Of a DNA stretch of 64,000 nucleotides, positions 16,890 through 48,124 are shown piece by piece. The stretch covers positions 23,312,001 through 23,376,000 of the forward strand of contig OX597833.1 of assembly GCA_951406725.2 (NCBI GenBank), in the 5' to 3' direction. Position 1 is the first letter of the stretch; every line of letters begins with the position of its first letter. The stretch is from Octopus vulgaris. Its lineage: Eukaryota. The notes beneath the pieces were generated by a model, which saw only the letters and a list, made by a program, of their open reading frames with translations, did no database searches and had not been told where the DNA came from. The position numbers and the translations under genes were made by a program.

Positions 16890-18467
16890 CATTTGTGATA
16901 GCAAGGGGAAACTTTCTGGGTTGGAAATTTGTGGTTGCATGGCGCTTACCTCCCCTAGTCCGTAAAGAATTTATTTTACGTACAGGGTTGCTGGCACTAT
17001 TAGAATTGAAATCATTATTCCTATTACGAGTAACTTTACTATCTGCAGAAGCAGATGCTGGTTTAGAATGAGCTGAGTCGAGCATGACACTTTCTCCCCA
17101 TAACCGGCTCCCAACAAGGCGGCGTCACAGAAGTCCGCCCCTTGGCCAAAGATGCCGACACCAGCAGACAACCTGGACAGTCTCAGAGACACGTTTTCAA
17201 CTAAACCATCGGCAACTGGTCTGGCATGACCACTGAAAATGCCAACACACCCAAGACGTGCGGAAGGTCCACGACAAGGGAAGCATGAGTCACTCTGCAA
17301 ACCGAGGGCAATGTCCAAGAAGTTGGCCCTAGCCAATTCATCGTTGAAAACCAATGCGCAAGCCCACTCCACTAAAAAACCCAACCAATCTGTTCTTAAC
17401 CTTCTGTATTTTTTGGTTCGAAACGTTTTGGAGGTAAAGCAGACAATCGTCGCGATAAAGACCTCCACAGATGTCCGGGAATTGGTCGGCCATTTCACAA
17501 AGAATATAAATTCCGACCAAACCGGCTATCTGGGCGCTGTCTGTACTTCCCATTAGTACATCAAACGCATTAGGGGCATCTCTACCGAACCACAATTTGC
17601 TATCGAACTGGATGAAAGACTTCCTAGCAGTCAATATCACACCAATTTCCCCCCTGGAGAGGCCTGCCCCACTGTGCGCGTGCCATAGGGCCTTATTAAG
17701 TACAACAGGGTTGATTGAAGAATAGAAACCAGATACACCGAATTGGACAAATTTAGTGTTGGCCCCATCAGTAATAGAAGTAAACCAATCTACGACTTGA
17801 ACAGAATTGGACCATAAGCTAAGTTTTAATTTATTAATTAATATAGGGATATACTTATCTAATATGTATTTACTAAGGATACCGATGTCTGAACTGGAAG
17901 GGCATATGAGCCGCAATGCTGGGCCAGTATGAAAGTTCTGTTTGTGGTCCTTTAAGATGAATCTGGGTTGCCTAGGGTTTAATGGTTCCGTCTTCATCTT
18001 TAATCCGTAAGTCTCCATAATCTGCTTAGTTTCTAAGTTGGCCCGCCTGAGAGCACTCCCACCGGTGGTCCTGTAATTCTTATGTATCTCCTTTTCGAGC
18101 AGTTCTAAATAATGGCTCTTGGTAAGCCTAAAGATGTTGCCGGTTTCATCCGACCGGACAAGGACAGAATCCAAGCCGTCCATATCCCCAGAGACGTCAT
18201 CGAGGCACCTGACGTGCTCATTCCTGAGGGGTGATTTATGAAATTTAATATTATTTACGATGTCCCAAAGATCATCTTCGAATTTCTTCAATCTAGGATT
18301 AGGTGGAGAAGTTCCCCTCGACTTAAATAGTCTTTTACACCCAAGGGAGACGTCGTTACTGGTCCGTTTTAGGTCCTCATTATCGTGGAAGAAGGCGAGC
18401 CATCTGATGCGGATGATAAATGCATTGGTCTTGTTAATAATTTCCTTAAGGAAGGCTTTTTTCGGTG
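16890..18467 (-). pseudogene. PLE partial copy (RT region), head-to-head with copy A
   Basis: Reverse complement of 18808-20382. Confidence 0.92.
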
Positions 18468-18761
18468 AATGAAAACATGCTGTCTTCGAAACATGAGTCG
18501 AGAGTAAAGGAATTTTGTTAACATCTTCGTTCGACTCCATTCTTTCATTTATTCATATACAACACACAGATTTCTACACATGAACCCGGAGTTTCTACCC
18601 TTGACAGGTCGCTTCAACCGTGTTTCTGACGTGAATTTGCTACCCAGGTTTCGGTTAAACGAATTTTCCATGCTGACGATAAACATAGGATAATTCATTC
18701 ACCTACTTAAATATTCTTATACAGTTTCCCTGAGAACCTGCTAACATAACCGATACCGCAA

Positions 18762-21327
18762 ATGGAGTTGTTCAATATTAACGCCTCCCTTAAGGATATC
18801 CCTATACCACCGAAAAAGCCTTCCTTAAGGAAATTATTAACAAGACCAATGCATTTATCATCCGCATCAGATGGCTCGCCTTCTTCCACGATAATGAGGA
18901 CCTAAAACGGACCAGTAACGACGTCTCCCTTGGGTGTAAAAGACTATTTAAGTCGAGGGGAACTCCTCCACCTAATCCTAGATTGAAGAAATTCGAAGAT
19001 GATCTTTAGGACATCGTAAAGAATATTAAATTTCATAAATCACCCCTCAGGAATGAGCACCTCAGGTGCCTCGATGACGTCTCTGGGGATATGGACGGCT
19101 TGGATTCTGTCCTGGTCCGGTCGGATGAAACCGGCAACATCTATAAGCTTACCAAGAGCCATTATTTAGAACTGCTCGAAAAGGAGATACATAAGAATTA
19201 CAGGACCACCGGTGGGAGTGCCCTCAAGCGGGCCAACTTAGAAACTAAGCAGATTATGGAGACTTACGGATTACAGATGAAGACGGAACCATTAAACCTA
19301 GGCAACCCAGATTCATCTTAAAGGACCACAAACAGAACTTTCATACTGGCCCAGCATTGCGGCTCATATGCCCTTCCAGATCAGACATCGGTACCCTTAG
19401 TAAATACATATTAGATAAGTACATCCCTATATTAATTAATAAATTAAAACTTAGCTTATGGTCCAATTCTGTTCAAGTCGTAGATTGGTTTACTTCTATT
19501 ACTGATGGGGCCAACACTAAATTTGTCCAATTCGGTGTATCTGGTTTCTATTCTTCAATCAACCCTGTTGTACTTAATAAGGCCCTATGGCACGCGCACA
19601 GTGGGGCAGGCCTCTCCAGGGGGAAATTGGTGTGATATTGACTGCTAGGAAATCTTTCATCCAGTTCGATAGCAAATTGTGGTTCGGTAGAGATGCCCCT
19701 AATGCGTTTATGTATTAATGGGAAGTACAGACAGCGCCCAGATAGCCGGTTTGGTCGGAATTTATATTCTTTGTGAAATGGCCGACCAATTCCCGGACAT
19801 CTGTGGAGGTCTTTATCGCGACGATTGTCTGCTTTACCTCCAAAACGTTTTGAACCAAAAAATACAGAAGGTTAAGAACAGATTGGTTGGGTTTTTTAGT
19901 GGAGTGGGCTTGCGCATTGGTTTTTGACGATGAATTGGCTAGGGCCAACTTCTTGGACATTGCCCTCGGTTTGCAGAGTGACTCATGCTTCCCTTGTCGT
20001 GGACCTTCCGCACGTCTTGGGTGTGTTGGCATTTTCAGTGGTCATGCCAGACCAGTTGCCGATGGTTTAGTTGAAAACGTGTCTCTGAGACTGTCCAGGT
20101 TGTCTGCTGGTGTCGGCATCTTTGGCTAAGGGGCGGACTTCTGTGGCGCCGCCTTGTTGGGAGCCGGTTATGGGGAGAAAGTGTCATGCGTCGACTCAGC
20201 TCATTCTAAACCAGCATCTGCTTCTCCAAATAGTAAAGTTACTCGTAATAGGAATAATGATTTCAATTCTAATAGTGCCAGCAACCCTGTACGTAAAATA
20301 AATTCTTTACGGACTAGGGGAGGTAAGCGCCATGCAACCACAAATTTCCAACCCAGAAATTTTCTCCTTGCTATCACAAATGACACTGGGAACAATTCAA
20401 GGGCCACAGAAAACTGTATCTGGTTTGTAATACCTTTCGGAAAACAAATTAAATCGAACCTTCCCTTACAGTTCCGTGAAGCCGTTGCTGGGAGCTTTCC
20501 CAGAAATTCTGGATGTCATTCTGTTGTCGATTCACACGGGGTCAGAGTCGCTTTCTCTGGCACTAGGGGTCTTTCGCAAATTGTGTCTTCCCAATACCAA
20601 ACTGCTAGACGGGAATTCTTCACCCGGCAGTTCCAACACTAATCTTGCTAATTCCAACCCATCATACAATCATGGTGATAGGAGTAGTGTTGATGGTGAC
20701 AGTATTGGTGGCGCTGAAAGTGTTGACAATGATGGTGTTGATAATGGTATTGGTCGTGTTGATAGTGGCGGCAGTGGCGGTGTTGTTGTCGGGGGTATTG
20801 CTGGTTGTAATGCCGTTGGTAATACTAATGGTGGTGGAGGTGGTGTAGTTGTTGGCGCTAATGGTAATGGTGACAACGGTCATGACGGTAGAGGCTTCGT
20901 TTCGATCTCGGAGGACAGGCCCAGCAGAATTGGATTTTTGTCTGGTGGTTCTGGGATTTGGAATTCTGTTTGCCAGTGTGGAGTTTCTTCCGGTGCCGGT
21001 GTCTTCTTCTGTGTGGGAGCGTCCACTTCCCAGTTGTCCAGGAGAGTTTCAGACCACTGCTCAACATTCAGGGATAGTAAGGGGCGACATAGTGCAGGGC
21101 TAAGTGAATTGGTTTGGCGTCTTAAGGACAACAATATAGTTTTCAAGTTGGATTGGTTCATACTGTATGTGTCCTTTCCTTTTGATGTGGGCGGGAGATT
21201 TTGTAACATTTGTGACTCTGAATTCTTCCGTGTTCTTTTCTCTAGGGTTCCCCTGGTGGACACACTGATAGAGGGATCATACAGCTGTAAACACTGGCAG
21301 AGGCACACTTTCTGCTCATATAAATGA
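18762..21327 (+). pseudogene. PLE copy A: RT + GIY-YIG ORF (~850 codons), frameshifted and hypermutated
   Basis: MELFNIN start; PRFILKDHK, LRLICP, FGVSGFYSSI, YRDD, FLDIAL, VC..CVG, CNIC..CKH, TGA at 21325. Confidence 0.9.
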
Positions 21328-21592
21328 TAACGATAGTCACTGTGGTTTGAACAATTGGCTTTACGTCCACCCCACTTCTATAAAAATTCTTTCCTAAGCC
21401 TTCGAACATTCTTTCAATCAACGTGCCCTTCCCTCTCCACTTGTTCCCTGCCTGTTATTGCTTTTTCCCTTCTCTTCCTACTATCTATTTTTGACGTCAA
21501 TTCTTCTAATGTTTTTTTAAAAAAAACACTCATTATCGCTTTGTTTGCCGTGTGGGCAATCATCAAAATTTTTGTTTGTCTTGTCGAGAGAG

Positions 21593-21690
21593 TTCCCTTT
21601 CTTTCCTGGTGAGAAGATTGCATGGTGCACCCTTTATTCCTTTGGAATGAAAACATGCTGTCTTCGAAACATGAGTCGAGAGTAAAGGAA
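21593..21690 (+). ncRNA. Type I hammerhead ribozyme of the PLE pLTR with variant core CUGGUGA
   Basis: Stem I CTTTC/GAGAG extended by TTCCCTTT/AAAGGAA; core CTGGTGA 21606-21612; stem II GAAGA..TCTTC; GAAAC-ATGA-GTC. Same motif with core at 25341, 28497, 32209, 35363, 38511 (+) and at 24452-24549, 31319-31416, 42825-42922 (-). Confidence 0.85.
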
Positions 21691-21939
21691 TTTTGTTAAC
21701 ATCTTCGTTCGACTCCATTCTTTCATTTATTCATATACAACACACAGATTTCTACACATGAACCCGGAGTTTCTACCCTTGACAGGTCGCTTCAACCGTG
21801 TTTCTGACGTGAATTTGCTACCCAGGTTTCGGTTAAACGAATTTTCCATGCTGACGATAAACATAGGATAATTCATTCACCTACTTAAATATTCTTATAC
21901 AGTTTCCCTGAGAACCTGCTAACATAACCGATACCGCAA

Positions 21940-24900
21940 ATGGAGTTGTTCAATATTAACGCCTCCCTTAAGGATATCCCTATACCACCGAAAAAAGCCT
22001 TCCTTAAGGAAATTATTAACAAGACCAATGCATTTATCATCCGCATCAGATGGCTCGCCTTCTTCCACGATAATGAGGACCTAAAACGGACCAGTAACGA
22101 CGTCTCCCTTGGGTGTAAAAGACTATTTAAGTCGAGGGAACTCCTCCACCTAATCCTAGATTGAAGAAATTCGAAGATGATCTTTGGGACATCGTAAAGA
22201 ATATTAAATTTCATAAATCACCCCTCAGGAATGAGCACGTCAGGTGCCTCGATGACGTCTCTGGGGATATGGACGGCTTGGATTCTGTCCTGGTCCGGTC
22301 GGATGAAACCGGCAACATCTATAAGATTACCAAGAGCCATTATTTAGAACTGCTCGAAAAGGAGATACATAAGAATTACAGGACCACCGGTGGGAGTGCT
22401 CTCAGGCGGGCCAACTTAGAAACTAAGCAGATTATGGAGACTTACGGATTACAGATGAAGACGGAACCATTAAACCCTAGGCAACCCAGATTCATCTTAA
22501 AGGACCACAAACAGAACTTTCATACTGGCCCAGCATTGCGGCTCATATGCCCTTCCAGTTCAGACATCGGTACCCTTAGTAAATACATATTAGATAAGTA
22601 TATCCCTATATTAATTAATAAATTAAAACTTAGCTTATGGTCCAATTCTGTTCAAGTCGTAGATTGGTTTACTTCTATTACTGATGGGGCCAACACTAAA
22701 TTTGTCCAATTCGGTGTATCTGGTTTCTATTCTTCAATCAACCCTGTTGTACTTAATAAGGCCCTATGGCACGCGCACAGTGGGCAGGCCTCTCCAGGGG
22801 GAAATCGGTGTGATATTGACTGCTAAGAAGTCTTTCATCCAGTTCGATAGCATTGTGGTTCGGTAGAGATGCCCCTAATGCGTTTGATGTACTAATGGGA
22901 AGTACAGACAGCGCCCAGATAGCCGGTTTGGTCGGAATTTATATTCTTTGTGAAATGGCCGACCAATTCCCGGACATCTGTGGAGGTCTTTATCGCGACG
23001 ATTGTCTGCTTTACCTCCAAAACGTTTCGAACCAAAAAATACAGAAGGTTAAGAACAGATTGGTTGGGTTTTTTAGTGGAGTGGGCTTGCGCATTGGTTT
23101 TTGACGATGAATTGGCTAGGGCCAACTTCTTGGACATTGCCCTCGGTTTGCAGAGTGACTCATGCTTCCCTTGTCGTGGACCTTCCGCAGATCTTGGGTG
23201 TGTTGGCATTTTCAGTGGTCATGCCAGACCAGTTGCCGATGGTTTAGTTGAAAACGTGTCTCTGAGACTGTCCAGGTTGTCTGCTGGTGTCGGCATCTTT
23301 GGCCAAGGGGCGGACTTCTGTGGCGCCGCCTTGTTGGGAGCCGGTTATGGGGAGAAAGTGTCATGCGTCGACTCAGCTCATTCTAAACCAGCATCTGCTT
23401 CTCCAAATAGTAAAGTTACTCGTAATAGGAATAATGATTTCAATTCTAATAGTGCCAGCAACCCTGTACGTAAAATAAATTCTTTACGGACTAGGGGAGG
23501 TAAGCGCCATGCAACCACAAATTTCCAACCCAGAAATTTTCCCCTTGCTATCACAAATGACACTGGGAACAATTCAAGGGCCACAGAAAACTGTATCTGG
23601 TTTGTAATACCTTTCAGAAAACAAATTAAATCGAACCTTCCCTTACAGTTCCGTGAAGCCGTTGCTGGGAGCTTTCCCAGAAATTCTGGATGTCATTCTG
23701 TTGTCGATTCACACGGGGTCAGAGTCGCTTTCTCTGGCACTAGGGGTCTTTCGCAAATTGTGTCTTCCCAATACCAAACTGCTAGACGGGAATTCTTCAC
23801 CCGGCAGTTCCAACACTAATCTTGCTAATTCCAACCCATCATACAATCATGGTGATAGGAGTAGTGTTGATGGTGACAGTATTGGTGGCGGCGAAAGTGT
23901 TGACGATGATGGTGTTGATAATGGTATTGGTCGTGTTGATAGTGGCGGCAGTGGCGGTGTTGTTGTCGGTGGTATTGCTGGTTGTAATGCCGTTGGTAAT
24001 ACTAATGGTGGTGGAGGTGGTGTAGTTGTTGGCGCTAATGGTAATGGAGACAACGGTCATGACGGTAGAGGCTTCGTTTCGATCTCGGAGAACAGCCCCA
24101 GCAGAATTGGATTTTTGTCTGGTGGTTCTGGGATTGGGAATTCTGTTTGCCAGTGTGGAGTTTCTTCCGGTGCCGGTGTCTTCTCCTGTGTGGGAGCGTC
24201 CACTTCCCAGTTGTCCAGGAGAGTTTCAGACCACTGCTCAACATTCAGGGATAGTAAGGGGCGACATAGTGCAGGGCTAAGTGAATTGGTTTGGCGTCTT
24301 AAGGACAACAATATAGTTTTCAAGTTGGATTGGTTCATACTGTCTGTGTCCTTTCCTTTTGTGGTATAGAAACTCCGGGTTCATGTGTAGAAATCTGTGT
24401 GTTGTATATGAATAATTGAAAGAATGGAGTCGATCGAAGATGTTAACAATATTCCTTTACTCTCGACTCATGTTTCGAAGACAGCATGTTTTCATTCCAA
24501 AGGAATAAAGGGTGCACCATGCAATCTTCTCACCAGGAAAGAAAGGGAACCTCTCTCGACAACAAGACAAACAAAATTTTGATGATTGCCCACACGGCAA
24601 ACAAAGCGATAATAAGTGTTTTTTTTAAAAAACATTGGAAGAATTGACGTCAAAAATAGATAGTAGGAAGAGAAGGGACAAAGCAATAACAGGCAGGGAA
24701 CAAGTGGGAAGGGAAGGGCACGTTGATTGAAAGAATGTTCGAAGGCTTATGAAAGAATTTCTTTATAGAAGTGGGGTGGGCGTAAAGCCAATTGTTCAAA
24801 CCACAGGATAGTAAGGGGCGACATAGTGCAGGGCTAAGTGAATTGGTTTGGCGTCTTAAGGACAACAATATAGTTTTCAAGTTGGATTGGTTCATACTCT

Positions 24901-25059
24901 CTGTGTCCTTTCCTTTTGATGGGGGCGGGAGATTTTGTAACATTGGTGACTCTGAATTCTTCCGTGTTCTTTTCTCTAGGGTTCCCCTGGTGGACACCGA
25001 TAGAGGGATCATACAGCTGTAAACACTGGCAGAGGCACACTTTCTGCTAATATAAATGA
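21940..25059 (+). pseudogene. PLE copy B, with inverted pLTR segment 24367-24806 inside the endonuclease region
   Basis: Repeat of copy A at ~3177 bp offset; ~110 bp of EN sequence is duplicated across the inversion. Confidence 0.9.
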
Positions 25060-25674
25060 TAACGATAGTCACTGTGGTTTGAACAATTGGCTTTACGCCC
25101 ACCCCACTTCTATAAAGTAATTCTTTCATAAGCCTTCGAACATTCTTTCAATCAACGTGCCCTTCCCTCTCCACTTGTTCCCTGCCTGTTATTGCTTTTT
25201 CCCTTCTCTTCCTACTATCTATTTTTGACGTCAATTCTTCTAATGTTTTTTTTAAAAAAACACTCATTATCGCTTTGTTTGCCGTGTGGGCAATCATCAA
25301 AATTTTTGTTTGTCTTGTCGAGAGAGTTTCCCTTTCTTTCCTGGTGAGAAGATTGCATGGTGCACCCTTTATTCCTTTGGAATGAAAACATGCTGTCTTC
25401 GAAACATGAGTCGAGAGTAAAGGAATTTTGTTAACATCTTCGTTCGACTCCATTCTTTCATTTATTTATATACAACACACAGATTTCTACACATGAACCC
25501 GGAGTTTCTACCCTTGACAGGTCGCTTCAACCGTGTTTCTGACGTGAATTTGCTACCCAGGTTTCGGTTAAACGAATTTTCCATGCTGACGATAAACATA
25601 GGATAATTCATTCACCTACTTAAATATTCTTATACAGTTTCCCTGAGAACCTGCTAACATAACCGATACCGCAA

Positions 25675-28215
25675 ATGGAGTTGTTCAATGTTAACGCCTC
25701 CCTTAAGGATATCCCTATACCACCGAAAAAAGCCTTCCTTAAGGAAATTATTAACAAGACCAATGCATTTATCATCCGCATCAGATGGCTCGCCTTCTTC
25801 CACGATAATGAGGACCTAAAACGGACCAGTAACGACGTCTCCCTTGGGTGTAAAAGACTATTTAAGTCGAGGTGAACTCCTCCACCTAATCCTAGATTGA
25901 AGAAATTCGAAGATGATCTTTGGGACATCGTAAAGAATATTAAATTTCAAAAATCACCCCTCAGGAATGAGCACGTCAGGTGCCTCGATGACGTCTCTGG
26001 GGATATGGACGGCTTGGATTCTGTCGTGGTCCGGTCGGATGAAACCGGCAACATCTATAGGCTTACCAAGAGCCATTATTTAGAACTGCTCGAAAAGGAG
26101 ATACATAAGAATTACAGGACCACCGGTGGGAGTGCCCTCAGGCGGGCCAACTTAGAAACTAAGCAGAGTATGGAGACTTACGGATTACAGATGAAGACGG
26201 AACCATTAAACCCTAGGCAATCCAGATTCATCTTAAAGGACCACAAACAGAACTTTCATACTGGCCCAGCATTGCGGCTCATATGCCCTTCCAGTTCAGA
26301 CATCGGTACCCTTAGTAAATACATATTAGATAAGTATATCCCTGTATTAATTAATAAATTAAAACTTAGCTTATGGTCCAATTCTGTTCAAGTCGTAGAT
26401 TGGGTTACTTCTATTACTGATGGGGCCAACACTAATTCGGTGTATCTGGTTTCTATTCTTCAATCAACCCTGTTGTACTTAATAAGGCCCTATGGCACGC
26501 GCACAGTGGGGCAGGCCTCTCCAGGGGGGAAATCGGTGTGATATTGACTGCTAGGAAGTTTTTCATCCAGTTCGGTAGAGATGCCCCTAATGCGTTTGAT
26601 GTACTAATGGGAAGTACAGACAGCGCCCAGATAGCCGGTTTGGTCGGAATTTATATTCTTTGTGAAATGGCCGACCAATTCCCGGACATCTGTGGAGGTC
26701 TTTATCGCGACGATTGTCTGCTTTACCTCCAAAACGTTTCGAACCAAAAAATACAGAAGGTTAAGAACAGATTGGTTGGGTTTTTTTAGTGGAGTGGGCT
26801 TGCGCATTGGTTTTTGACGATGAATTGGCTAGGGCCAACTTCTTGGACATTGCCCTCGGTTTGCAGAGTGACTCATGCTTCCCTTGTCGTGGACCTTCCG
26901 CAGATCTTGGGTGTGTTGGCATTTTCAGTGGTCATGCCAGACCAGTTGCCGATGGTTTAGTTGAAAACGTGTCTCTGAGACTGTCCAGGTTGTCTGCTGG
27001 TGTCGGCATCTTTGGCCAAGGGGCGGACTTCTGTGGCGCCGCCTTGTTGGGAGCCGGTTATGGGGAGAAAGTGTCATGCGTCGACTCAGCTCATTCTAAA
27101 CCAGCATCTGCTTCTCCAAATAGTAAAGTTACTCGTAATAGGAATAATGATTTCAATTCTAATAGTGCCAGCAACCCTGTACGTAAAATAAATTCTTTAC
27201 GGACTAGGGGAGGTAAGCGCCATGCAACCACAAATTTCCAACCCAGAAATTTTCCCCTTGCTATCACAAATGACACTGGGAACAATTCAAGGGCCACAGA
27301 AAACTGTATCTGGTTTGTAATACCTTTCAGAAAACAAATTAAATCGAACCTTCCCTTACAGTTCCGTGAAGCCGTTGCTGGGAGCTTTCCCAGAAATTCT
27401 GGATGTCATTCTGTTGTCGATTCACACGGGGTCAGAGTCGCTTTCTCTGGCACTAGGGGTCTTTCGCAAATTGTGTCTTCCCAATACCAAACTGCTAGAC
27501 GGGAATTCTTCACCCGGCAGTTCCAACACTAATCTTGCTAATTCCAACCCATCATACAATCATGGTGATAGGAGTAGTGTTGATGGTGACAGTATTGGTG
27601 GCGGCGAAAGTGTTGACGATGATGGTGTTGATAATGGTATTGGTCGTGTTGATAGTGGCGGCAGTGGCGGTGTTGTTGTCGGTGGTATTGCTGGTTGTAA
27701 TGCCGTTGGTAATACTAATGGTGGTGGAGGTGGTGTAGTTGTTGGCGCTAATGGTAATGGTGACAACGGTCATGACGGTAGAGGCTTCGTTTCGATCTCG
27801 GAGGACAGGCCCAGCAGAATTGGATTTTTGTCTGGTGGTTCTGGGTTTGGAAATTCTGTTTGCCAGTGTGGAGTTTCTTCCGGTGCCGGTGTCTTCTTCT
27901 GTGGGGGCGTCCACTTCCCAGTTGTCCAGGAGAGTTTCAGACCACTGCTCAACATTCAGGGATAGTAAGGGGCGACATAGTGCAGGGCTAAGTGAATTGG
28001 TTTGGCGTCTTAAGGACAACAATATAGTTTTCAAGTTGGATTGGTTCATACTGTCTGTGTCCTTTCCTTTTGATGGGGGCGGGAGATTTTGTAACATTTG
28101 TGACTCTGAATTCTTCCGTGTTCTTTTCTCTAGGGTTCCCCTGGTGGACACACTGATAGAGGGATCATACAGCTGTAAACACTGGCAGAGGCACACTTTC
28201 TGCTCATATAAATGA
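25675..28215 (+). pseudogene. PLE copy C
   Basis: Same sequence with small deletions near 26433 and 26572. Confidence 0.9.
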
Positions 28216-28831
28216 TAACGATAGTCACTGTGGTTTGAACAATTGGCTTTACGCCCACCCCACTTCTATAAAGTAATTCTTTCATAAGCCTTCGAACATT
28301 CTTTCAATCAACGTGCCCTTCCCTCTCCACTTGTTCCCTGCCTGTTATTGCTTTTTCCCTTCTCTTCCTACTATCTATTTTTGACGTCAATTCTTCTAAT
28401 GTTTTTTTAAAAAAAACACTCATTATCGCTTTGTTTGCCGTGTGGGCAATCATCAAAATTTTTGTTTGTCTTGTCGAGAGAGTTTCCCTTTCTTTCCTGG
28501 TGAGAAGATTGCATGGTGCACCCTTTATTCCTTTGGAATGAAAACATGCTGTCTTCGAAACATGAGTCGAGAGTAAAGGAATTTTGTTAACATCTTCGTT
28601 CGACTCCATTCTTTCATTTATTTATATACAACACACAGATTTCTACACATGAACCCGGAGTTTCTACCCTTGACAGGTCGCTTCAACCGTGTTTCTGACG
28701 TGAATTTGCTACCCAGGTTTCGGTTTTAACGAATTTTGCATGCTGACGATAAACATAGGATAATTCATTCACCTACTTAAATATTCTTATACAGTTTCCC
28801 TGAGAACCTGCTAACATAACCGATACCGCAA

Positions 28832-31927: not shown

Positions 31928-32542
31928 TAACGATAGTCACTGTGGTTTGAACAATTGGCTTTACGCCCACCCCACTTCTATAAAGTAATTCTTTCATAAG
32001 CCTTCGAACATTCTTTCAATCAACGTGCCCTTCCCTCTCCACTTGTTCCCTGCCTGTTATTGCTTTTTCCCTTCTCTTCCTACTATCTATTTTTGACGTC
32101 AATTCTTCTAATGTTTTTTTTAAAAAAACACTCATTATCGCTTTGTTTGCCGTGTGGGCAATCATCAAAATTTTTGTTTGTCTTGTCGAGAGAGTTTCCC
32201 TTTCTTTCCTGGTGAGAAGATTGCATGGTGCACCCTTTATTCCTTTGGAATGAAAACATGCTGTCTTCGAAACATGAGTCGAGAGTAAAGGAATTTTGTT
32301 AACATCTTCGTTCGACTCCATTCTTTCATTTATTTATATACAACACACAGATTTCTACACATGAACCCGGAGTTTCTACCCTTGACAGGTCGCTTCAACC
32401 GTGTTTCTGACGTGAATTTGCTACCCAGGTTTCGGTTAAACGAATTTTCCATGCTGACGATAAACATAGGATAATTCATTCACCTACTTAAATATTCTTA
32501 TACAGTTTCCCTGAGAACCTGCTAACATAACCGATACCGCAA

Positions 32543-35081
32543 ATGGAGTTGTTCAATGTTAACGCCTCCCTTAAGGATATCCCTATACCACCGAAAAAAG
32601 CCTTCCTTAAGGAAATTATTAACAAGACCAATGCATTTATCATCCGCATCAGATGGCTCGCCTTCTTCCACGATAATGAGGACCTAAAACGGACCAGTAA
32701 CGACGTCTCCCTTGGGTGTAAAAGACTATTTAAGTCGAGGTGAACTCCTCCACCTAATCCTAGATTGAAGAAATTCGAAGATGATCTTTGGGACATCGTA
32801 AAGAATATTAAATTTCAAAAATCACCCCTCAGGAATGAGCACGTCAGGTGCCTCGATGACGTCTCTGGGGATATGGACGGCTTGGATTCTGTCGTGGTCC
32901 GGTCGGATGAAACCGGCAACATCTATAGGCTTACCAAGAGCCATTATTTAGAACTGCTCGAAAAGGAGATACATAAGAATTACAGGACCACCGGTGGGAG
33001 TGCCCTCAGGCGGGCCAACTTAGAAACTAAGCAGAGTATGGAGACTTACGGATTACAGATGAAGACGGAACCATTAAACCCTAGGCAATCCAGATTCATC
33101 TTAAAGGACCACAAACAGAACTTTCATACTGGCCCAGCATTGCGGCTCATATGCCCTTCCAGTTCAGACATCGGTACCCTTAGTAAATACATATTAGATA
33201 AGTATATCCCTGTATTAATTAATAAATTAAAACTTAGCTTATGGTCCAATTCTGTTCAAGTCGTAGATTGGGTTACTTCTATTACTGATGGGGCCAACAC
33301 TAATTCGGTGTATCTGGTTTCTATTCTTCAATCAACCCTGTTGTACTTAATAAGGCCCTATGGCACGCGCACAGTGGGGCAGGCCTCTCCAGGGGGAAAT
33401 CGGTGTGATATTGACTGCTAGGAAGTTTTTCATCCAGTTCGGTAGAGATGCCCCTAATGCGTTTGATGTACTAATGGGAAGTACAGACAGCGCCCAGATA
33501 GCCGGTTTGGTCGGAATTTATATTCTTTGTGAAATGGCCGACCAATTCCCGGACATCTGTGGAGGTCTTTATCGCGACGATTGTCTGCTTTACCTCCAAA
33601 ACGTTTCGAACCAAAAAATACAGAAGGTTAAGAACAGATTGGTTGGGTTTTTTAGTGGAGTGGGCTTGCGCATTGGTTTTTGACGATGAATTGGCTAGGG
33701 CCAACTTCTTGGACATTGCCCTCGGTTTGCAGAGTGACTCATGCTTCCCTTGTCGTGGACCTTCCGCAGATCTTGGGTGTGTTGGCATTTTCAGTGGTCA
33801 TGCCAGACCAGTTGCCGATGGTTTAGTTGAAAACGTGTCTCTGAGACTGTCCAGGTTGTCTGCTGGTGTCGGCATCTTTGGCCAAGGGGCGGACTTCTGT
33901 GGCGCCGCCTTGTTGGGAGCCGGTTATGGGGAGAAAGTGTCATGCGTCGACTCAGCTCATTCTAAACCAGCATCTGCTTCTCCAAATAGTAAAGTTACTC
34001 GTAATAGGAATAATGATTTCAATTCTAATAGTGCCAGCAACCCTGTACGTAAAATAAATTCTTTACGGACTAGGGGAGGTAAGCGCCATGCAACCACAAA
34101 TTTCCAACCCAGAAATTTTCCCCTTGCTATCACAAATGACACTGGGAACAATTCAAGGGCCACAGAAAACTGTATCTGGTTTGTAATACCTTTCAGAAAA
34201 CAAATTAAATCGAACCTTCCCTTACAGTTCCGTGAAGCCGTTGCTGGGAGCTTTCCCAGAAATTCTGGATGTCATTCTGTTGTCGATTCACACGGGGTCA
34301 GAGTCGCTTTCTCTGGCACTAGGGGTCTTTCGCAAATTGTGTCTTCCCAATACCAAACTGCTAGACGGGAATTCTTCACCCGGCAGTTCCAACACTAATC
34401 TTGCTAATTCCAACCCATCATACAATCATGGTGATAGGAGTAGTGTTGATGGTGACAGTATTGGTGGCGGCGAAAGTGTTGACGATGATGGTGTTGATAA
34501 TGGTATTGGTCGTGTTGATAGTGGCGGCAGTGGCGGTGTTGTTGTCGGTGGTATTGCTGGTTGTAATGCCGTTGGTAATACTAATGGTGGTGGAGGTGGT
34601 GTAGTTGTTGGCGCTAATGGTAATGGTGACAACGGTCATGACGGTAGAGGCTTCGTTTCGATCTCGGAGGACAGGCCCAGCAGAATTGGATTTTTGTCTG
34701 GTGGTTCTGGGTTTGGAAATTCTGTTTGCCAGTGTGGAGTTTCTTCCGGTGCCGGTGTCTTCTTCTGTGGGGGCGTCCACTTCCCAGTTGTCCAGGAGAG
34801 TTTCAGACCACTGCTCAACATTCAGGGATAGTAAGGGGCGACATAGTGCAGGGCTAAGTGAATTGGTTTGGCGTCTTAAGGACAACAATATAGTTTTCAA
34901 GTTGGATTGGTTCATACTGTCTGTGTCCTTTCCTTTTGATGGGGGCGGGAGATTTTGTAACATTTGTGACTCTGAATTCTTCCGTGTTCTTTTCTCTAGG
35001 GTTCCCCTGGTGGACACACTGATAGAGGGATCATACAGCTGTAAACACTGGCAGAGGCACACTTTCTGCTCATATAAATGA
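32543..35081 (+). pseudogene. PLE copy E
   Basis: Nearly identical to copy C at 6866-6868 bp offset. Confidence 0.9.
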
Positions 35082-35697
35082 TAACGATAGTCACTGTGGT
35101 TTGAACAATTGGCTTTACGCCCACCCCACTTCTATAAAGTAATTCTTTCATAAGCCTTCGAACATTCTTTCAATCAACGTGCCCTTCCCTCTCCACTTGT
35201 TCCCTGCCTGTTATTGCTTTTTCCCTTCTCTTCCTACTATCTATTTTTGACGTCAATTCTTCTAATGTTTTTTTAAAAAAAACACTCATTATCGCTTTGT
35301 TTGCCGTGTGGGCAATCATCAAAATTTTTGTTTGTCTTGTCGAGAGAGTTTCCCTTTCTTTCCTGGTGAGAAGATTGCATGGTGCACCCTTTATTCCTTT
35401 GGAATGAAAACATGCTGTCTTCGAAACATGAGTCGAGAGTAAAGGAATTTTGTTAACATCTTCGTTCGACTCCATTCTTTCATTTATTTATATACAACAC
35501 ACAGATTTCTACACATGAACCCGGAGTTTCTACCCTTGACAGGTCGCTTCAACCGTGTTTCTGACGTGAATTTGCTACCCAGGTTTCGGTTTTAACGAAT
35601 TTTGCATGCTGACGATAAACATAGGATAATTCATTCACCTACTTAAATATTCTTATACAGTTTCCCTGAGAACCTGCTAACATAACCGATACCGCAA

Positions 35698-38227
35698 ATG
35701 GAGTTGTTCAATGTTAACGCCTCCCTTAAGGATATCCCTATACCACCGAAAAAAGCCTTCCTTAAGGAAATTATTAACAAGACCAATGCATTTATCATCC
35801 GCATCAGATGGCTCGCCTTCTTCCACGATAATGAGGACCTAAAACGGACCAGTAACGACGTCTCCCTTGGGTGTAAAAGACTATTTAAGTCGAGGTGAAC
35901 TCCTCCACCTAATCCTAGATTGAAGAAATTCGAAGATGATCTTTGGGACATCGTAAAGAATATTAAATTTCATAAATCACCCCTCAGGAATGAGCACGTC
36001 AGGTGCCTCGATGACGTCTCTGGGGATATGGACGGCTTGGATTCTGTCGTGGTCCGGTCGGATGAAACCGGCAACATCTATAAGTTTACCAAGAGCCATT
36101 ATTTAGAACTGCTCGAAAAGGAGATACATAAGAATTACAGGACCACCGGTGGGAGTGCCCTCAGGCGGGCCAACTTAGAAACTAAGCAGAGTATGGAGAC
36201 TTACGGATTACAGATGAAGACGGAACCATTAAACCCTAGGCAACCCAGATTCATCTTAAAGGACCACAAACAGAACTTTCATACTGGCCCAGCATTGCGG
36301 CTCATATGCCCTTCCAGTTCAGACATCGGTACCCTTAGTAAATACATATTAGATAAGTATATCCCTATATTAATTAATAAATTAAAACTTAGCTTATGGT
36401 CCAATTCTGTTCAAGTCGTAGATTGGTTTACTTCTATTACTGATGGGGCCAACACTAATTCGGTGTATCTGGTTTCTATTCTTCAATCAACCCTGTTGTA
36501 CTTAATAAGGCCCTATGGCACGCGCACAGTGGGGCAGGCCTCTCCAGGGGGGAAATCGGTGTGATATTGACTGCTAAGAAGTTTTTCATCCAGTTCGGTA
36601 GAGATGCCCCTAATGCGTTTGATGTACTAATGGGAAGTACAGACAGCGCCCAGATAGCCGGTTTGGTCGGAATTTATATTCTTTGTGAAATGGCCGACCA
36701 ATTCCCGGACATCTGTGGAGGTCTTTATCGCGACGATTGTCTGCTTTACCTCCAAAACGTTTCGAACCAAAAAATACAGAAGGTTAAGAACAGATTGGTT
36801 GGGTTTTTTAGTGGAGTGGGCTTGCGCATTGGTTTTTGACGATGAATTGGCTAGGGCCAACTTCTTGGACATTGCCCTCGGTTTGCAGAGTGACTCATGC
36901 TTCCCTTGTCGTGGACCTTCCGCAGATCTTGGGTGTGTTGGCATTTTCAGTGGTCATGCCAGACCAGTTGCCGATGGTTTAGTTGAAAACGTGTCTCTGA
37001 GACTGTCCAGGTTGTCTGCTGGTGTCGGCATCTTTGGCCAAGGGGCGGACTTCTGTGGCGCCGCCTTGTTGGGAGCCGGTTATGGGAGAAAGTGTCATGC
37101 GTCGACTCAGCTCATTCTAAACCAGCATCTGCTTCTCCAAATAGTAAAGTTACTCGTAATAGGAATAATGATTTCAATTCTAATAGTGCCAGCAACCCTG
37201 AACGTAAAATGAATTCTTTACGGACTAGGGGAGGTAAGCGCCATGCAACCACAAATTTCCAACCCAGAAATTTTCCCCTTGCTATCACAAATGACACTGG
37301 GAACAATTCAAGGGCCACAGAAAACTGTATCTGGTTTGTAATACCTTTCAGAAAACAAATTAAATCGAACCTTCCCTTACAGTTCCGTGAAGTCGTTGCT
37401 GGGAGCTTTCCCAGAAATTCTGGATGTCATTCTGTTGTCGATTCACACGGGGTCAGAGTCGCTTTCTCTGGCACTAGGGGTCTTTCGCAAATTGTGTCTT
37501 CCCAATACCAAACTGCTAGACGGGAAATCTTCACCCGGCAGTTCCAACACTAATCTTGCTAATTCCAACCAATCATACAATCATGGTGATAGGAGTAGTG
37601 TTGATGGTGACAGTATTGGTGGCGGCGAAAGTGTTGACGATGATGGTGTTGATAATGGTATTGGTCGTGTTGATAGTGGCGGTGTTGTTGTCGGTCGTAT
37701 TGCTGGTTGTAATGCCGTTGGTAATACTAATGGTGGTGGAGGTGGTGTAGTTGTTGGCGCTAATGGTAATGGTGACAACGGTCATGACGGTAGAGGCTTC
37801 GTTTAGATCTCGGAGGACAGCCCCAGCAGAATTGGATTTTTGTCTGGTGGTTCTGGGCTTGGAAATTCTGTTTGCCAGTGTGGAGTTTCTTCCGGTGCCG
37901 GTGTCTTCTTCTGTGGGGGCGTCCACTTCCCAGTTGTCCAGGAGAGTTTCAGACCACTGCTCAACATTCAGGGATAGTAAGGGGCGACATAGTGCAGGGC
38001 TAAGTGAATTGGTTTGGCGTCTTAAGGACAACAATATAGTTTTCAAGTTGGATTGGTTCATACTGTCTGTGTCCTTTCCTTTTGATGGGGGCGGGAGATT
38101 TTGTAACATTTGTGATTCTGAATTCTTCCGTGTTCTTTTCTCTAGGGTTCCCCTGGTGGACACACTGATAGAGGGATCATACAGCTGTAAACACTGGCAG
38201 AGGCACACTTTCTGCTCATATAAATGA
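35698..38227 (+). pseudogene. PLE copy F
   Basis: Same ORF remnants; followed by pLTR to 38680. Confidence 0.9.
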
Positions 38228-38685
38228 TAACGATAGTCACTGTGGTTTGAACAATTGGCTTTACGCCCACCCCACTTCTATAAAGAAATTCTTTCATAAG
38301 CCTTCGAACATTCTTTCAATCAACGTGCCCTTCCCTCTCCACTTGTTCCCTGCCTGTTATTGCTTTGTCCCTTCTCTTCCTACTATCTATTTTTGACGTC
38401 AATTCTTCTAACGTTTTTTTAAAAAAAACACTTATTATCGCTTTGTTTGCCGTGTGGGCAATCATCAAAATTTTGTTTGTCTTGTTGTCGAGGGAGGTTC
38501 CCTTTCTTTCCTGGTGAGAAGATTGCATGGTGCACCCTTTATTTCTTTGGAATGAAAACATGCTGTCTTCGAAACATGAGTCGAGAGTAAAGGAATTTTG
38601 TTAACATCTTCGTTCGACTCCATTCTTTCATTTATTCATATACAACACACAGATTTCTACACATGAACCCGGAGTTTCTATACCA

Positions 38686-41600
38686 CAAAAGGAAAGGACA
38701 CAGACAGTATGAACCAATCCAACTTGAAAACTATATTGTTGTCCTTAAGACGCCAAACCAATTCACTTAGCCCTGCACTATGTCGCCCCTTACTATCCCT
38801 GAATGTTGAGCAGTGGTCTGAAACTCTCCTGAACAACTGGGAAGTGGACGCTCCCACAGAAGAAGACACCTGCACCGGAAGAAACTCCACACTGGCAAAC
38901 AGAATTCCCAATCCCAGAACCACCAGACAAAAATCCAATTCTGCTGGGGCTGTCCTCCGAGATCGAAACGAAGCCTCTACCGTCATGACCGTTGCCTCCA
39001 TTACCATTAGCGCCAACAACTACACCACCTCCACCACCATTAGTATTACCAACGGCATTACAACGAGCAATACCACCGACAACAACACCGCCACTGCCGT
39101 CACTATCAACACGACCAATACCATTATCAACACCATCATTGTCAACACTTTCGCCACCACCAATGCTGTCACCATCAACACTACTCCTATCACCATGATT
39201 GTATGATGGGTTGGAATTAGCAAGATTAGTGTTGGAACTGCCGGGTGAAGAATTCCCGTCTAGCAGTTTGGTATTGGGAAGACACAAGTTGCGAAAGACC
39301 CCTAGTGCCAGAGAAAGCGACTCTGACCCCGTGTGAATCGACAACAGAATGACATCCAGAATTTCTGGGAAAGCTCCCAGCAACGGCTTCACGGAACTGT
39401 AAGGAAAGGTTCGATTTAATTTGTTTTCCGAAATGTATTACAAACCAGATACAGTTTTCTGTGACCCTTGAAATGTTCCCAGTGTCATTTATGAAAGCAA
39501 GGGGAAAATTTCTGGGTTGGAAATTTGTGGTTGCATGGCGCTTACCTCCCCTAGTCCGTAAAGAATTCATTTTACGTTCAGGGTTGCTGGCACTATTAGA
39601 ATTGAAATCATTATTCCTATTACGAGTAACTTTACTATCTGGAGAAGCAGATGCTGGTTTAGAATGAGCTGAGTCGACGCATGACACTTTCTCCGCATAA
39701 CCGGCTCCCAACAAGGCGGCGCCACAGAAGTCCGCCCCTTGGCCAAAGATGCCGACACCAGCAGACAACCTGGACAGTCTCAGAGACACGGTTTCAACTA
39801 AACCATCGGCAACTGGTCTGGCATGACCACTGAAAATGCCAACACACCCAAGACCTGCGGAAGGTCCATGACAAGGGAAGCATGAGTCACTCTGCAAACC
39901 GAGGGCAATGTCCAAGAAGTTGGCCCTAGCCAATTCATCGTCAAAAACCATGCGCAAGCCCACTCCACTAAAAAACCCAACCAATCTGTTCTTAACCTTC
40001 TGTATATTTTGGTTCGAAACGTTTTGGAGGTAAAGCAGACAATCGTCGCGATAAAGACCTCCACAGATGTCCGGGAATTGGTCGGCCATTTCACAAAGAA
40101 TATAAATTCCGACCAAACCGGCTATCTGGGCGCTGTCTGTACTTCCCATTAGTTGTTGGTTGGCATCCTTTCTGTCTCGGGAGACAATGGAGTTGCGCAT
40201 AAAGTAGTCTAGTCCGGCTTTTATATTTCATGTCCTGATACATTTCCTGCTGTGGCTGTGTAGTCCTATCCTGGACAAACACTTCCTCTGGCAGGTACCG
40301 CAAATGTAGCGAAGACTGTTCCTGTCTGGTTGTAATGCCATAGTCTCTTGTTGACGTCCCTTCTTTTCTTTCCATTTCTCCTCTCTCTCTCTCTCTGTCA
40401 CTCCTTTGTATTCCCTCTTTTACGGTACGTCGCCATTCTTCACGGTTGCCGGCAACTGCCTCCCAACCGCTAATATTGATGTTGCAGGACTTCATGTCCC
40501 TTTTGCAAACATCCTTGTAACGTAAGATCGGTCTACCCACAGACCTAGCACCCCTGGCAAGCTCTCCGTAGCGTATGTCCTTGGGGATTCTGCCATCTTT
40601 CATACGGCTAACATGCCCAAGCCATCTCATACGTCTTTGTGTGAGGAGTGCAAACATGCTTGGTATTCCTGCTTGCCTGAGGACATCTTTGTTGGGGATA
40701 TGATTCTGCCATTTGATGCGGAGGATTTTTCGGAGGCAGCGCAGGTGAAAGATGTTTAGGCGACGCTCTTGGCGTGTGTATAGCGTCCAGGTCTCACTTC
40801 CATACAGTAGAGTGCTGAGTACACATGCCTGGTAGATCTTCATTTTCGTGGTCTTGGTCAGCTTATTGTTGTCCCAAGCCCGTTTGGAGAGTTGGGCCAT
40901 CGCAGCAGCTGCCTTGCCAATGCGTATATTGAGCTCAGCGTCAAGGGATAGGTTGTAGGTGACGGTAGAGCCCAGATAGGTAAACTTCTCCACCTCTTGT
41001 AATCTGTGGTCTCCAATATGTATGTTTGGGATGTCCGATGTAGCCTGGCCCATGATGTTGGTCTTCTTAAGGCTGATAGCTAAGCCAAAGTCGTTACATG
41101 CTTGCTCAAAACAGTTAATGAGCCTTTGGAGGGCTTCTTCTGTGTGTGTTACCAGAGCGGCATCATCAGCAAATAACATCTCCTTGATCAGGACGTTTCT
41201 GATTTTGGTCTTGGCACGCAGGCGCGAGAGATTGAACAGTTTCCCGTCACTTCTACTGTGCAGAAACACTCCAGCTTCTGATGTCTGAAAGGCATGTGAA
41301 AGTAAGAGCGAGAAGAAGATGCCAAACAATGTAGGAGCGAGGACACAACCTTGTTTTACCCCGTTTTTTATTTGGAAGGCGGCTGATGTTGAACCGTTGT
41401 GCTGTATGGTGCCTTGCATGTCATCATGGAAAGACTTGATGATCCTCAGCAGCTTTGGTGGACATCCGATTTTTTTGGAGCAGGATGAAGAGGCCTGTTC
41501 TGCTTACCGAGTCAAAAGCCTTTGTTAGATCAATGAAGGCCATATATAATGGCATTTTCTGCTCTCTGGACTTCTCCTGAAGTTGGCGTATGGAGAATAT

Positions 41601-42574
41601 CATATCGATAGTTGATAGTACATCAAACGCATTAGGGGCATCTCTACCGAACCACAATTTGCTATCGAACTGGATGAAAGATTTCCTAGCAGTCAATATC
41701 ACACCAATTTCCCCCTGCAGAGGCCTGCTCCACTGTGCGCGTGCCATAAAGCATTATTAAGTACAACAGGGTTGATTGAAGAATAGAAACCAGATACACC
41801 GAATTGGACAAATTTAGTGTTGGCCCCATCAGTAATAGAAGTAAACCAATCTACGACTTGAACAGAATTGGACCATAAGCTAAGTTTTAATTTATTAATT
41901 AATACAGGGATATACTTATCTAATATGTATTTACTAAGGGTACCGATGTCTGAACTGGAAGGGCATATGAGCCGCAATGCTGGGCCAGTATGAAAGTTCT
42001 GTTTGTGGTCCTTTAAGATGAATCTGGGTTGCCTAGGGTTTAATGGTTCCGTCTTCATCTGTAATCCGTAAGTCTCCATAATCTGCTTAGTTTCTAAGTT
42101 GGCCCGCCTGAGAGCACTCCCACCGGTGGTCCTGTAATTCTTATGTATCTCCTTTTCGAGCAGTTCTAAATAATGGCTCTTGGTAAGCTTATAGATGTTG
42201 CCGGTTTCATCCGACCGGACCAGGACAGAATCCAAGCCGTCCATATCCCCAGAGACGTCATCGAGGCACCTGACGTGCTCATTCCTGAGGGGTGATTTAT
42301 GAAATTTAATATTCTTTACGATGTCCCAAAGATCATCTTCGAATTTCTTCAATCTAGGATTAGGTGGAGGAGTTCACCTCGACTTAAATAGTCTTTTACA
42401 CCCAAGGGAGACGTCGTTACTGGTCCGTTTTAGGTCCTCATTATCGTGGAAGAAGGCGAGCCATCTGATGCGGATGATAAATGCATTGGTCTTGTTAATA
42501 ATTTCCTCAAGGAAGGCTTTTTTCGGTGGTATAGGGATATCCTTAAGGGAGGCGTTAATATTGAACAACTCCAT
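38686..42574 (-). pseudogene. PLE copy G (3'-truncated in EN, interrupted by RTE LINE)
   Basis: Minus-strand ORFs 42374-42574, 41699-42352, 39226-40150, 38793-39392. Confidence 0.9.
40154..41615 (-). mobile_element. 5'-truncated RTE-clade (BovB-like) LINE nested in PLE copy G
   Basis: FIDLTKAFDSVSR, GVKQGCVLAPTLF, LFADDAAL, FTYLGS, LLYGSETW, WLGHVSRM; TAGT on both sides (40150-40153, 41616-41619) is a possible 4-bp TSD. Confidence 0.93.
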
Positions 42575-43191
42575 TTGCGGTATCGGTTATGTTAGCAGGT
42601 TCTCAGGGAAACTGTATAAGAATATTTAAGTAGGTGAATGAATTATCCTATGTTTATCGTCAGCATGCAAAATTCGTTAAAACCGAAACCTGGGTAGCAA
42701 ATTCACGTCAGAAACACGGTTGAAGCGACCTGTCAAGGGTAGAAACTCCGGGTTCATGTGTAGAAATCTGTGTGTTGTATATAAATAAATGAAAGAATGG
42801 AGTCGAACGAAGATGTTAACAAAATTCCTTTACTCTCGACTCATGTTTCGAAGACAGCATGTTTTCATTCCAAAGGAATAAAGGGTGCACCATGCAATCT
42901 TCTCACCAGGAAAGAAAGGGAACCTCTCTCGACAAGACAAACAAAAATTTTGATGATTGCCCACACGGCAAACAAAGCGATGATGAGTGTTTTTTTAAAA
43001 AAAAACATTAGAAGAATTGACGTCAAAAATAGATAGTAGGAAGAGAAGGGAAAAAGCAATAACAGGCAGGGAACAAGTGGAGAGGGAAGGGCACGTTGAT
43101 TGAAAGAATGTTCGAAGGCTTAGGAAAGAATTTCTCTATAGAAGTGGGGTGGACGTAAAGCCAATTGTTCAAACCACAGTGACTATCGTTA

Positions 43192-44407
43192 TCATTTATA
43201 TGAGCAGAAAGTGTGCCTCTGCCAGTGTTTACATCTGTATGATCCCTCTATCAGTATGTCCACCAGGGGAACCCTAGAGAAAAGAACACGGAAGAGTTTA
43301 GAGTCACAAATGTTACAAAATCTCCCGCCCCCATCAAAAGGAAAGGACACAGACAGTATGAACCAATCCAACTTGAAAACTATATTGTTGTCCTTAAGAC
43401 GCCAAACCAATTCACTTAGCCCTGCACTATGTCGCCCCTTACTATCCCTGAATGTTGAGCAGTGGTCTGAAACTCTCCTGGACAACTGGGAAGTGGACGC
43501 TCCCACACAGAAGAAGACACCGGCACCGGAAGAAACTCCACACTGGCAAACAGAATTCCCAATCCCAGAACCACCAGACAAAAATCCAATTCTGCTGGGG
43601 CTGTCCTCCGAGATCGAAACGAAGCCTCTACCGTCATGACCGTTGTCACCATTACCATTAGCGCCAACAACTACACCACCTCCACCACCATTAGTATTAC
43701 CAACGGCATTACAACCAGCAATACGACCGACAACAACACCGCCACTGCCGTCACTATCAACACGACCAATACCATTATCAACACCATCATTGTCAACACT
43801 TTCGCCGCCACCAATGCTATCACCATCAACACTACTCCTATCACTATGATTGTATGATGGGTTGGAATTAGCAAGATTAGTGTTGGAACTGCCGGGTGAA
43901 GAATCCCCGTCTAGCAGCTTGGTATTGGGAAGACACAATTTGCGAAAGACCCCTAGTGCCAGAGAAAGCGACTCTGACCCCGTGTGAATCGACAACAGAA
44001 TGACATCCAGAATTTCTGGGAAAGCTCCCAGCAACGGCTTCACGGAACTGTAAGGGAAGGTTCGATTTAATTTGTTTTCCGAAAGGTATTACAAACCAGA
44101 TACAGTTTTCTGTGGCCCTTGAATTGTTCCCAGTGTCATTTGTGATAGGAAAGGGAAAATTTGTGGTTGCATGGCGCTTACCTCCCCTAGTCCGTAAAGG
44201 GTTGCTGGCACTATTAGTATTGAAGTCATTATTTGTATTACGAGTAACTTTACTATTAGGAGAAGCAGATGCTGGTTTAGAATGAGCTGAGTCGACGCAT
44301 GACACTTTCTCCCCATAACCGGCTCCCAACAAGGCGGCCCCACAGAAGTCCGCCCCTTGGCCAAAGATGCCGACACCAGCAGACAACCTGGACAGTCTCA
44401 GAGACAC

Positions 44408-44408
<1 letters not shown>
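43192..44408 (-). pseudogene. PLE copy H (5'-truncated: thumb, linker, EN), abutting (TA)n
   Basis: Minus-strand ORFs 43877-44407 and 43192-44043; (TA)n from 44409. Confidence 0.9.
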
Positions 44409-44458
<50 letters not shown>

Positions 44459-48053: not shown

Positions 48054-48124
48054 ATAAATAAAGATTCTTATACTCCATCTTCCATCTCTTTCATTTATTG
48101 TATATAGATATATATGTGTGTGTG

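Follow-up and report, generated by a model that had tools for sequence, protein, structure and literature searches.

Can RNA edited by ADAR (adenosine deaminase acting on RNA) become part of an inherited genome? The question is raised by a 64,000-nucleotide stretch of Octopus vulgaris DNA (contig OX597833.1 of assembly GCA_951406725.2, positions 23,312,001 to 23,376,000 of the forward strand; hereafter, the window), where positions 16890-44409 are occupied by an array of nine long tandem and inverted units of a single Hydra-clade-like Penelope element (genome size, 2.8 Gb). A sequence-only reading of the window had proposed that RNA of this element was hyper-edited, reverse-transcribed, and fixed in the germ line. 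The codons quoted in that proposal are exact: positions 19531-19551 read FGVSGFY, position 20968 starts GTT TGC, and position 21010 starts TGT GTG GGA, whereas the 80 bases at 20941-21020 contain just 6 A residues in the first direct unit of the array, unit A, versus 22 in the family majority.

Sense-strand A>G changes and their inheritance

Unit A (18467-21775), whose window coordinates are used here for all element positions, was compared with the base held by at least 70% of 22 dispersed copies of the family (L008-L029), which made 3124 of the 3309 positions callable; in a search with the reverse transcriptase (RT) region, dispersed family copies were 83-90% identical. Relative to this majority, A>G changes affect 236 of the 1019 A residues, whereas the other eleven substitution types together account for 43 changes, namely, G>A at 12 of 480 positions, C>T at 9, T>C at 3 of 955, and 19 transversions, including 2 A>C and 3 A>T. 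The imbalance between A>G and T>C is extreme (Fisher p=3e-69) and is absent from the same 22 dispersed loci. Tabulation of the 12 types against the family thus returned the sense A>G excess that the sequence-only reading had anticipated, and the symmetric A>G and T>C spectrum that it had listed as contrary evidence was not seen.

The changes depend strongly on the preceding base: the edited share is 115/276 (0.42) after T, 85/334 (0.25) after A, 22/208 (0.11) after C, and 9/164 (0.05) after G (chi-square p=1e-21), while the 3' neighbor matters little (0.18 to 0.28). They are also clustered, with 0 to 65% of the A residues changed per 100 nucleotides (nt), a degree of clustering matched by none of 2000 context-preserving shuffles, so that the predicted clustering and depletion after a 5' G both hold. 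In two hot zones taken together (RT thumb and the linker-endonuclease region; see below), the changed fractions are 63/81 for TA, 47/80 for AA, 10/42 for CA, and 2/30 for GA. The 5'-neighbor preference of ADAR follows the order U>A>C>G. In the text available of the survey PMC5625713, G is strongly depleted 5' of hyper-edited sites in all animals tested, octopus combines a reduced preference for a downstream G with an exceptionally high hyper-editing rate, and lizard Penelope RNA is a heavy hyper-editing target. The 5' context and the weak 3' preference in unit A match these published descriptions.

Much of this pattern could in principle arise without a deaminase, if C was misincorporated opposite template A in one round of cDNA synthesis because of a nucleotide-pool imbalance or an error-prone RT; such an error also predicts patchy sense-strand A>G changes from a single event that are common to all descendants. 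We regard this origin as improbable. Next to 236 A>G changes, A>C and A>T are almost absent, whereas diversity-generating retroelements show A-to-N infidelity. The 5' base has a strong effect, G being nearly excluded in the hot zones, and this is the preference published for ADAR; TA is edited more than AA, so runs of A are not the cause; and 80 sister copies produced by the same enzymes lack such a pattern.

The direction of change can be judged from a sister Penelope family, which has A at 147 of the 236 edited sites, a share that resembles the one at unedited A sites (472/778) and differs from that at ordinary G sites (112/465); A is therefore the ancestral state at the edited sites. The dispersed copy L009 retains a 785-amino-acid frame with the motifs FDISSFY, YRDD, IYQC, and YIGES, which shows that an intact member of the family has A-rich motifs and does not share the G-rich versions, whose presence there would have spoken against editing. 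Relative to L009, 151 codons of unit A carry nonsynonymous and 19 carry synonymous changes, and the edited fractions at the three codon positions (120/339, 74/282, and 30/165) reveal no third-position preference. The edits follow no codon-position or coding logic.

Conservation of the affected residues was assessed in 80 of 120 aligned homologues. Among 45 changed residues in conserved columns, the conserved residue is that of the family in 25 cases, that of the array in 4, and neither in 16, so that the family retains the conserved residue in 25 of the 29 informative cases. The conserved residues lost in the array include D195, K351, and N527 (80/80), as well as Y358, Y398, Y681, and Y694. 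The earlier claim that catalytic residues are lost holds for the motif A Asp and both tyrosines of GIY-YIG, but not for YRDD, which is intact. Because invariant residues are changed, and a 2-nt frameshift is also common to all units, the founder RNA, once edited, was unable to encode a working RT or endonuclease.

A trivial source of such a haplotype, sequencing or assembly error, can be addressed with independent sequencing data. Only 125 of the 1471 31-mers of 19850-21350 (8.5%) are present in the 22 unedited loci. Sampled words of the array are found in 20 listed runs from 9 studies with four organism labels, nine of these runs holding half or more (share up to 0.77), although the run with the best share may be the assembly's own source and the run types are partly guessed. 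Contigs of three runs (X6, X7, and X12, with organism labels B, C, and D) span 19855-20259 as single pieces of 380-406 nt that differ in 1, 3, and 6 letters and also cover 20652-21344, where the pieces measure 285-567 nt and have 3-7 differing letters. Altogether, the G-rich haplotype is reproduced in contigs (this evidence consists of contigs, not raw reads) of four other runs under three organism labels besides the commonest one. The runs listed as containing array words include none from RNA; in a further run, X10 (RNA by guess), one contig combines family and array alleles. The identity of two units of the array, C and E, over 3 kb does leave room for an assembly that inflates copy number, but the recurrence of the haplotype in other runs makes an artifact practically negligible as an explanation of the pattern. 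The G alleles, far from missing in genomic data, are inherited DNA and not an assembly error, and the edited array is germ-line DNA in several individuals.

The central claim of the sequence-only reading is supported by the strand and direction of the changes, by their clustering and 5' context, by their recurrence in independent runs, and by the loss of invariant residues. We consider it very likely that Penelope RNA was hyper-edited by ADAR as double-stranded RNA (dsRNA), reverse-transcribed by protein from an unedited transcript, and fixed in the germ line.

One founder and the history of the array

The array consists of an inverted partial unit, the direct units A, B, C, D, E, and F, and the inverted units H and I, which are 95-99% alike, with a monomer length of 3178 bp. 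Its parts, by window position and strand, are as follows (LTR, long terminal repeat; LINE, long interspersed nuclear element).

16890-18467, minus strand: inv1, inverted partial unit (element 18808-20382), head-to-head with unit A, retaining 96 of this stretch's 98 edits when read in the sense of the element
18467-21644, plus strand: unit A, one 3178-bp monomer (RT, linker, C-terminal GIY-YIG, 3' untranslated region/pseudo-LTR), with 236 A>G changes from 18569 to 21747
19531-19551, plus strand: RT motif A, FGVSGFY for the family's FDISSFY (D195G; Asp invariant in 80/80 homologues)
19870-20170, plus strand: editing hot zone 1, RT thumb, with clustered A>G
20670-21070, plus strand: editing hot zone 2, Asn-rich linker and GIY-YIG hairpin (Y681C, Y694C)
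21596-21688, plus strand: type I hammerhead-like motif in the pseudo-LTR, recognized by motif and stem complementarity; CTGATGA is changed to CTGGTGA (21609 A>G)
21645-24361, plus strand: unit B, head-to-tail behind A, stopping at element 21184 (junction J1)
24367-24806, minus strand: inverted pseudo-LTR piece (element 21340-21775), with a second occurrence at 31234-31674
24806-38680, plus strand: units C, D, E, and F with 3' pieces, nested later duplications forming a 6.87-kb higher-order repeat; no substitutions between C and E
38686-40153 and 41616-42870, minus strand: inverted unit H in two parts, with a LINE inserted later between them
40154-41615, minus strand: 3' part of that LINE (RVT_1), unrelated to the Penelope element, 98% like many dispersed copies and without A>G excess
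42871-44409, minus strand: unit I, inverted and 5'-truncated (element 20077-21644), adjoining (TA)23 at 44409-44455

All units, the inverted ones included, carry the same edit sites in the orientation of the element, with T>C numbering 0-3 in the inverted units. The sites are kept almost completely (96/98 in inv1, 166/170 in the first part of H, and 159/163 in I). One edit pattern in all units of both orientations means that a single edited RNA molecule was the founder of all tandem and inverted units.

The orientation of the pattern also bears on processes acting at the DNA level, such as a post-insertion hypermutation of repeats directed at TpA or deamination by ADAR of the DNA in an RNA:DNA hybrid. 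TA is indeed the most edited context, and a large inverted and tandem repeat is a possible target of a repeat-sensing process. Yet a TpA process on double-stranded DNA gives TG and CA alike, AA is edited too (25%), and the LINE inside the array is unaffected; the identical sites in units on both chromosome strands place the change before amplification. Had first-strand cDNA been the deaminated molecule, sense T>C changes would be expected, and these are absent. Hypermutation of double-stranded TpA was rejected as a candidate, given that TA>TG and TA>CA do not occur in similar numbers (T>C, 3) and direct and inverted units have the same sites. The sole DNA-level version left may be one in which, ahead of amplification, a sense DNA strand was deaminated while it was paired with antisense RNA, and we hold a DNA-level origin of any kind to be very improbable.

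The array's long inverted arms could themselves form dsRNA, which suggests another scheme: a resident array was transcribed, its arms paired, ADAR edited the RNA, and recombination with the resulting cDNA overwrote the locus. A read-through hairpin edited on both arms would leave element-sense T>C changes in the inverted units, whereas T>C there is 0-3 and the A>G sites are the same; furthermore, five lineages that have diverged by 1.1-2.8% at non-edit sites still keep one edit pattern. The common orientation of the pattern thus excludes both editing of the array's own read-through hairpin and a double-stranded process after insertion, and conversion in place is given as little credence as a DNA-level origin.

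Editing of one RNA before insertion leaves the question of how the array grew. It forms a single clade both in the RT region (support, 0.97) and in a second region (0.77), with a near-star base. The five lineages (inv1, A, B-F, H, and I) have 0.2-1.25% private changes each and share 15 non-edit changes; the dispersed copies have a median distance of 1.8% from the family majority. Given the near-star base and few private changes, the multiunit state appears to date from about the time of insertion, and the nested duplications in C-F appear to have occurred later at the DNA level. The early units may have come from repeated reverse transcription of one RNA or from DNA rearrangement soon after insertion; that the array formed at insertion itself is a possibility that we rate somewhat below even. 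Inosines read differently from pass to pass were not seen among the units, where 11 of 244 edited G sites and 21 of 456 ordinary G sites are variable.

Later steps left their own traces. A tail-to-tail junction (element 21184 to 21775) is found three times, at window positions 24361, 31228, and 38680, one of the three being reversed; once this junction existed, part of the array was therefore copied as DNA or cDNA. All units covering the region share a 2-nt and an 18-nt deletion. Units C (25380-28535) and E (32248-35401) have no substitutions over 3 kb, which indicates a very recent duplication, conversion, or assembly duplication. The LINE at 40154-41615, presumably of the RTE type, was inserted once the array had already formed.

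A broader version of this history, in which a single insertion event involved five or more rounds of copying, in both orientations, of one hyper-edited Penelope RNA (possibly a circular monomer released by the hammerhead), and fossils of edited RNA are a general overlooked class, is offered tentatively and seems to us rather unlikely. If it were true, the edit pattern would be a natural single-molecule barcode, the unexplained tandem and inverted structures of Penelope insertions would be products of one template copied again and again, and the overlooked fossils of ADAR-edited RNA would be inherited clusters of mutations in which an ancient germ cell's editome is preserved.

Elsewhere in the window, Helitron-like Rep/Pif1-helicase frames lie in several pieces at 10318-15399 (Pif1_2B_dom match; GC content, ∼50%), and another retroelement with a 561-amino-acid frame and an RVT_1 domain is found at 48058-49743.

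A possible source of double-stranded RNA and the rarity of the event

ADAR deaminates long dsRNA, and RT copies inosine as G. In the proposed sequence of events, a Hydra-clade-like Penelope transcript would have been double-stranded over most of its 3.2 kb, its partner being either an inverted arm of the donor locus or antisense RNA from another copy of the family. ADAR, to which the signature points, would have deaminated about a quarter of the adenosines promiscuously, up to 65% in patches. Protein translated from an unedited message, or from the same message before editing, would then have reverse-transcribed the edited RNA, with inosine read as G, and the cDNA would have been inserted in a germ-line cell. 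The founder would have multiplied in place, giving five lineages at or soon after insertion, with C-F added by later DNA duplication. ADAR2-like and ADAR1-like genes are present in this genome: A_deamin matches occur at 4 places, with ADAR2 the best PDB match for C6 and ADAR1 for C5. An inverted overlap of at least 100 nt is present in 17 of the 60 dispersed family loci, and such loci may be a ready source of dsRNA.

Several observations weigh against the proposed route or limit its reach. A long inverted repeat is absent from the monomer, and the donor locus was not found, as dispersed copies have at most 2 of the founder's 15 non-edit alleles; the dsRNA partner is therefore inferred. The link with local pairing is weak (unpaired probability, 0.56 at edited and 0.63 at unedited sites, p=0.003; per-bin rho, -0.36, p=0.046). 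The array stops, on both sides, at a point other than the 3' terminus at which family copies usually adjoin (TA)n, which means that the original insertion product was rearranged. The comparison of sequence context was with published descriptions of hyper-editing.

The same pattern is also missing elsewhere. Clusters of A>G or T>C changes were absent from all dispersed loci scored, 60 of the family and 20 of the sister family, which had been picked by similarity and hence lean to unedited copies. In motif censuses, each of which looks at one site of 29-30 nt and could miss a few other edited copies, the RT-thumb motif of both families gave 210 exact degenerate matches, with G at two or more of five chosen sites in 8, all of them in the array; the linker motif gave 69 matches, 7 of them G-rich and all inside the array; the sister-family motif gave 0 G-rich matches; and the antisense (T>C) motif gave 2 matches, neither similar to the element. 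A further linker-motif census yielded 2 additional, unrelated-looking matches. For the LINE 3' motif, 3 of 747 exact degenerate matches genome-wide are G-rich; these are explained by common variants, with no A>G excess. The edited haplotype has no daughters outside the array among the 40 scored of 341 candidates.

The event is clearly rare in this genome: at one motif, roughly 200 copies include a single such case. With no second edited copy, the route is shown once, and a systematic "ADAR mutator defense" is not shown. The earlier suggestion that ADAR acts as a heritable transposon mutator accordingly stands for one locally amplified event and is not shown as a family-wide or recurrent process, and the rarity limits its evolutionary weight.

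The element and its place among known systems

By its sequence features, the element appears to be a derived, Hydra-clade-like Penelope-like element of the endonuclease-bearing (EN+) type. A single frame combines RT and GIY-YIG (785 amino acids in L009 and 899 in L034, a member of the sister family), and pseudo-LTRs and partial tandem and inverted insertions are present. The C-terminal endonuclease lacks CCHH between GIY and YIG, while CxxC and CxH flank E and N (CNLC..E..N..CPH in L034), and DKT replaces DKG in L009, L034, and 120/120 homologues. Both local families have RWL, whereas 89 of the 120 nearest homologues have R[WM]K, and the CxCx5C linker, present in 106 of these 120, is absent in L009 and L034, although both families still insert at (TA)n. 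Among the 22 listed 3' ends, 12 run into TA repeats and the rest run into tandem element sequence. A hammerhead-like core, CTGATGA..GAAA, was found in 4/4 family loci examined; Rfam gave no hammerhead match on the edited copy, and the minimum-energy fold of the unedited L014 did not recover a hammerhead fold. Pfam gave no match for the element protein. In the text available of Craig et al. (PMC8557442), the Hydra clade likewise has a C-terminal GIY-YIG without CCHH, DKT, CxxC/CxH, (TA)n, a hammerhead-like pseudo-LTR, and tandem or inverted insertions; the octopus element differs in RWL for RWK, the lost CxCx5C linker, a long Asn-rich linker, and the 3.2-kb monomer. Membership in Naiad was rejected, as the endonuclease is C-terminal.

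The sister family (L031-L050) is younger, with ∼59% aligned identity to the edited one, and is represented at one motif by roughly 150 copies or more; it retains intact 899-amino-acid frames in 5 of 20 loci, includes several tandem or head-to-head pairs, and was probably active recently. A relative from Argonauta hians (P0024), annotated at its source as "GATA zinc finger domain-containing protein 14-like," is apparently a misannotated Penelope protein.

Template inosines fixed as G by a polymerase are familiar from A-to-G hypermutated retroviral proviruses and RNA viruses, with reverse transcription as the route to DNA. These hypermutated viral genomes are somatic or come from cell culture, whereas the octopus array is a germ-line insertion shared between individuals. 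The closest inherited counterpart is APOBEC editing of DNA, which, as described in the available text of PMC4866542 and PMC2873906, also leaves a dense, strand- and context-biased cluster of one substitution type in an inherited retroelement copy, visible against its family. That process is C-to-U deamination of minus-strand cDNA, read as sense G>A, in LTR elements of vertebrates; the octopus array has sense A>G in ADAR context, a substrate that is the RNA itself, a Penelope-like element, and no stop codons created. With G>A at just 12/480, membership in this class was rejected, the similarity being one of outcome only. Hyper-editing of repeat-derived dsRNA by ADAR, as presented in the text available of Porath et al. 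(PMC4365171 and PMC5625713), consists of differences between RNA and genome that are lost with the transcript, whereas here the pattern is in the genomic DNA of several individuals. ADAR1 also meets the RNA of a non-LTR retroelement in the case of LINE-1, which, in the portion of PMC5224506 at hand, it restricts independently of editing, with no editing reported in >2.5 kb of L1 RNA; in the octopus array, in contrast, massive editing did not keep the RNA from being retrotransposed.

A full-text literature search, in which subscription journals were thinly covered, returned work on hyper-editing of RNA and on G>A fossils of APOBEC; a germ-line copy of an ADAR-edited retroelement was not among the reports found. 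The LTR screen of Knisbacher and Levanon (PMC4866542), in its available text, reports G>A, calls other mismatch types "very rare," and finds none in 19 invertebrates; its supplements on other mismatch types may bear on the novelty of the present case. How Penelope tandem and inverted arrays arise is called undefined in the available text of PMC8557442, and the shared edit pattern provides a way to test their origin.

The array gives direct evidence at the genome level that A-to-I RNA editing can be written into inherited DNA by retrotransposition, at hundreds of sites at once. It is an ADAR-type parallel to the fossils left by APOBEC, found in an invertebrate and in an element class outside the published LTR screen. 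An RNA with ∼240 inosines was still a usable template, and Penelope proteins copy RNA that is no longer coding competent. The array also records past germ-line ADAR specificity in one molecule, and A/G-collapsed alignment to a family majority offers a simple screen for such records in any genome.

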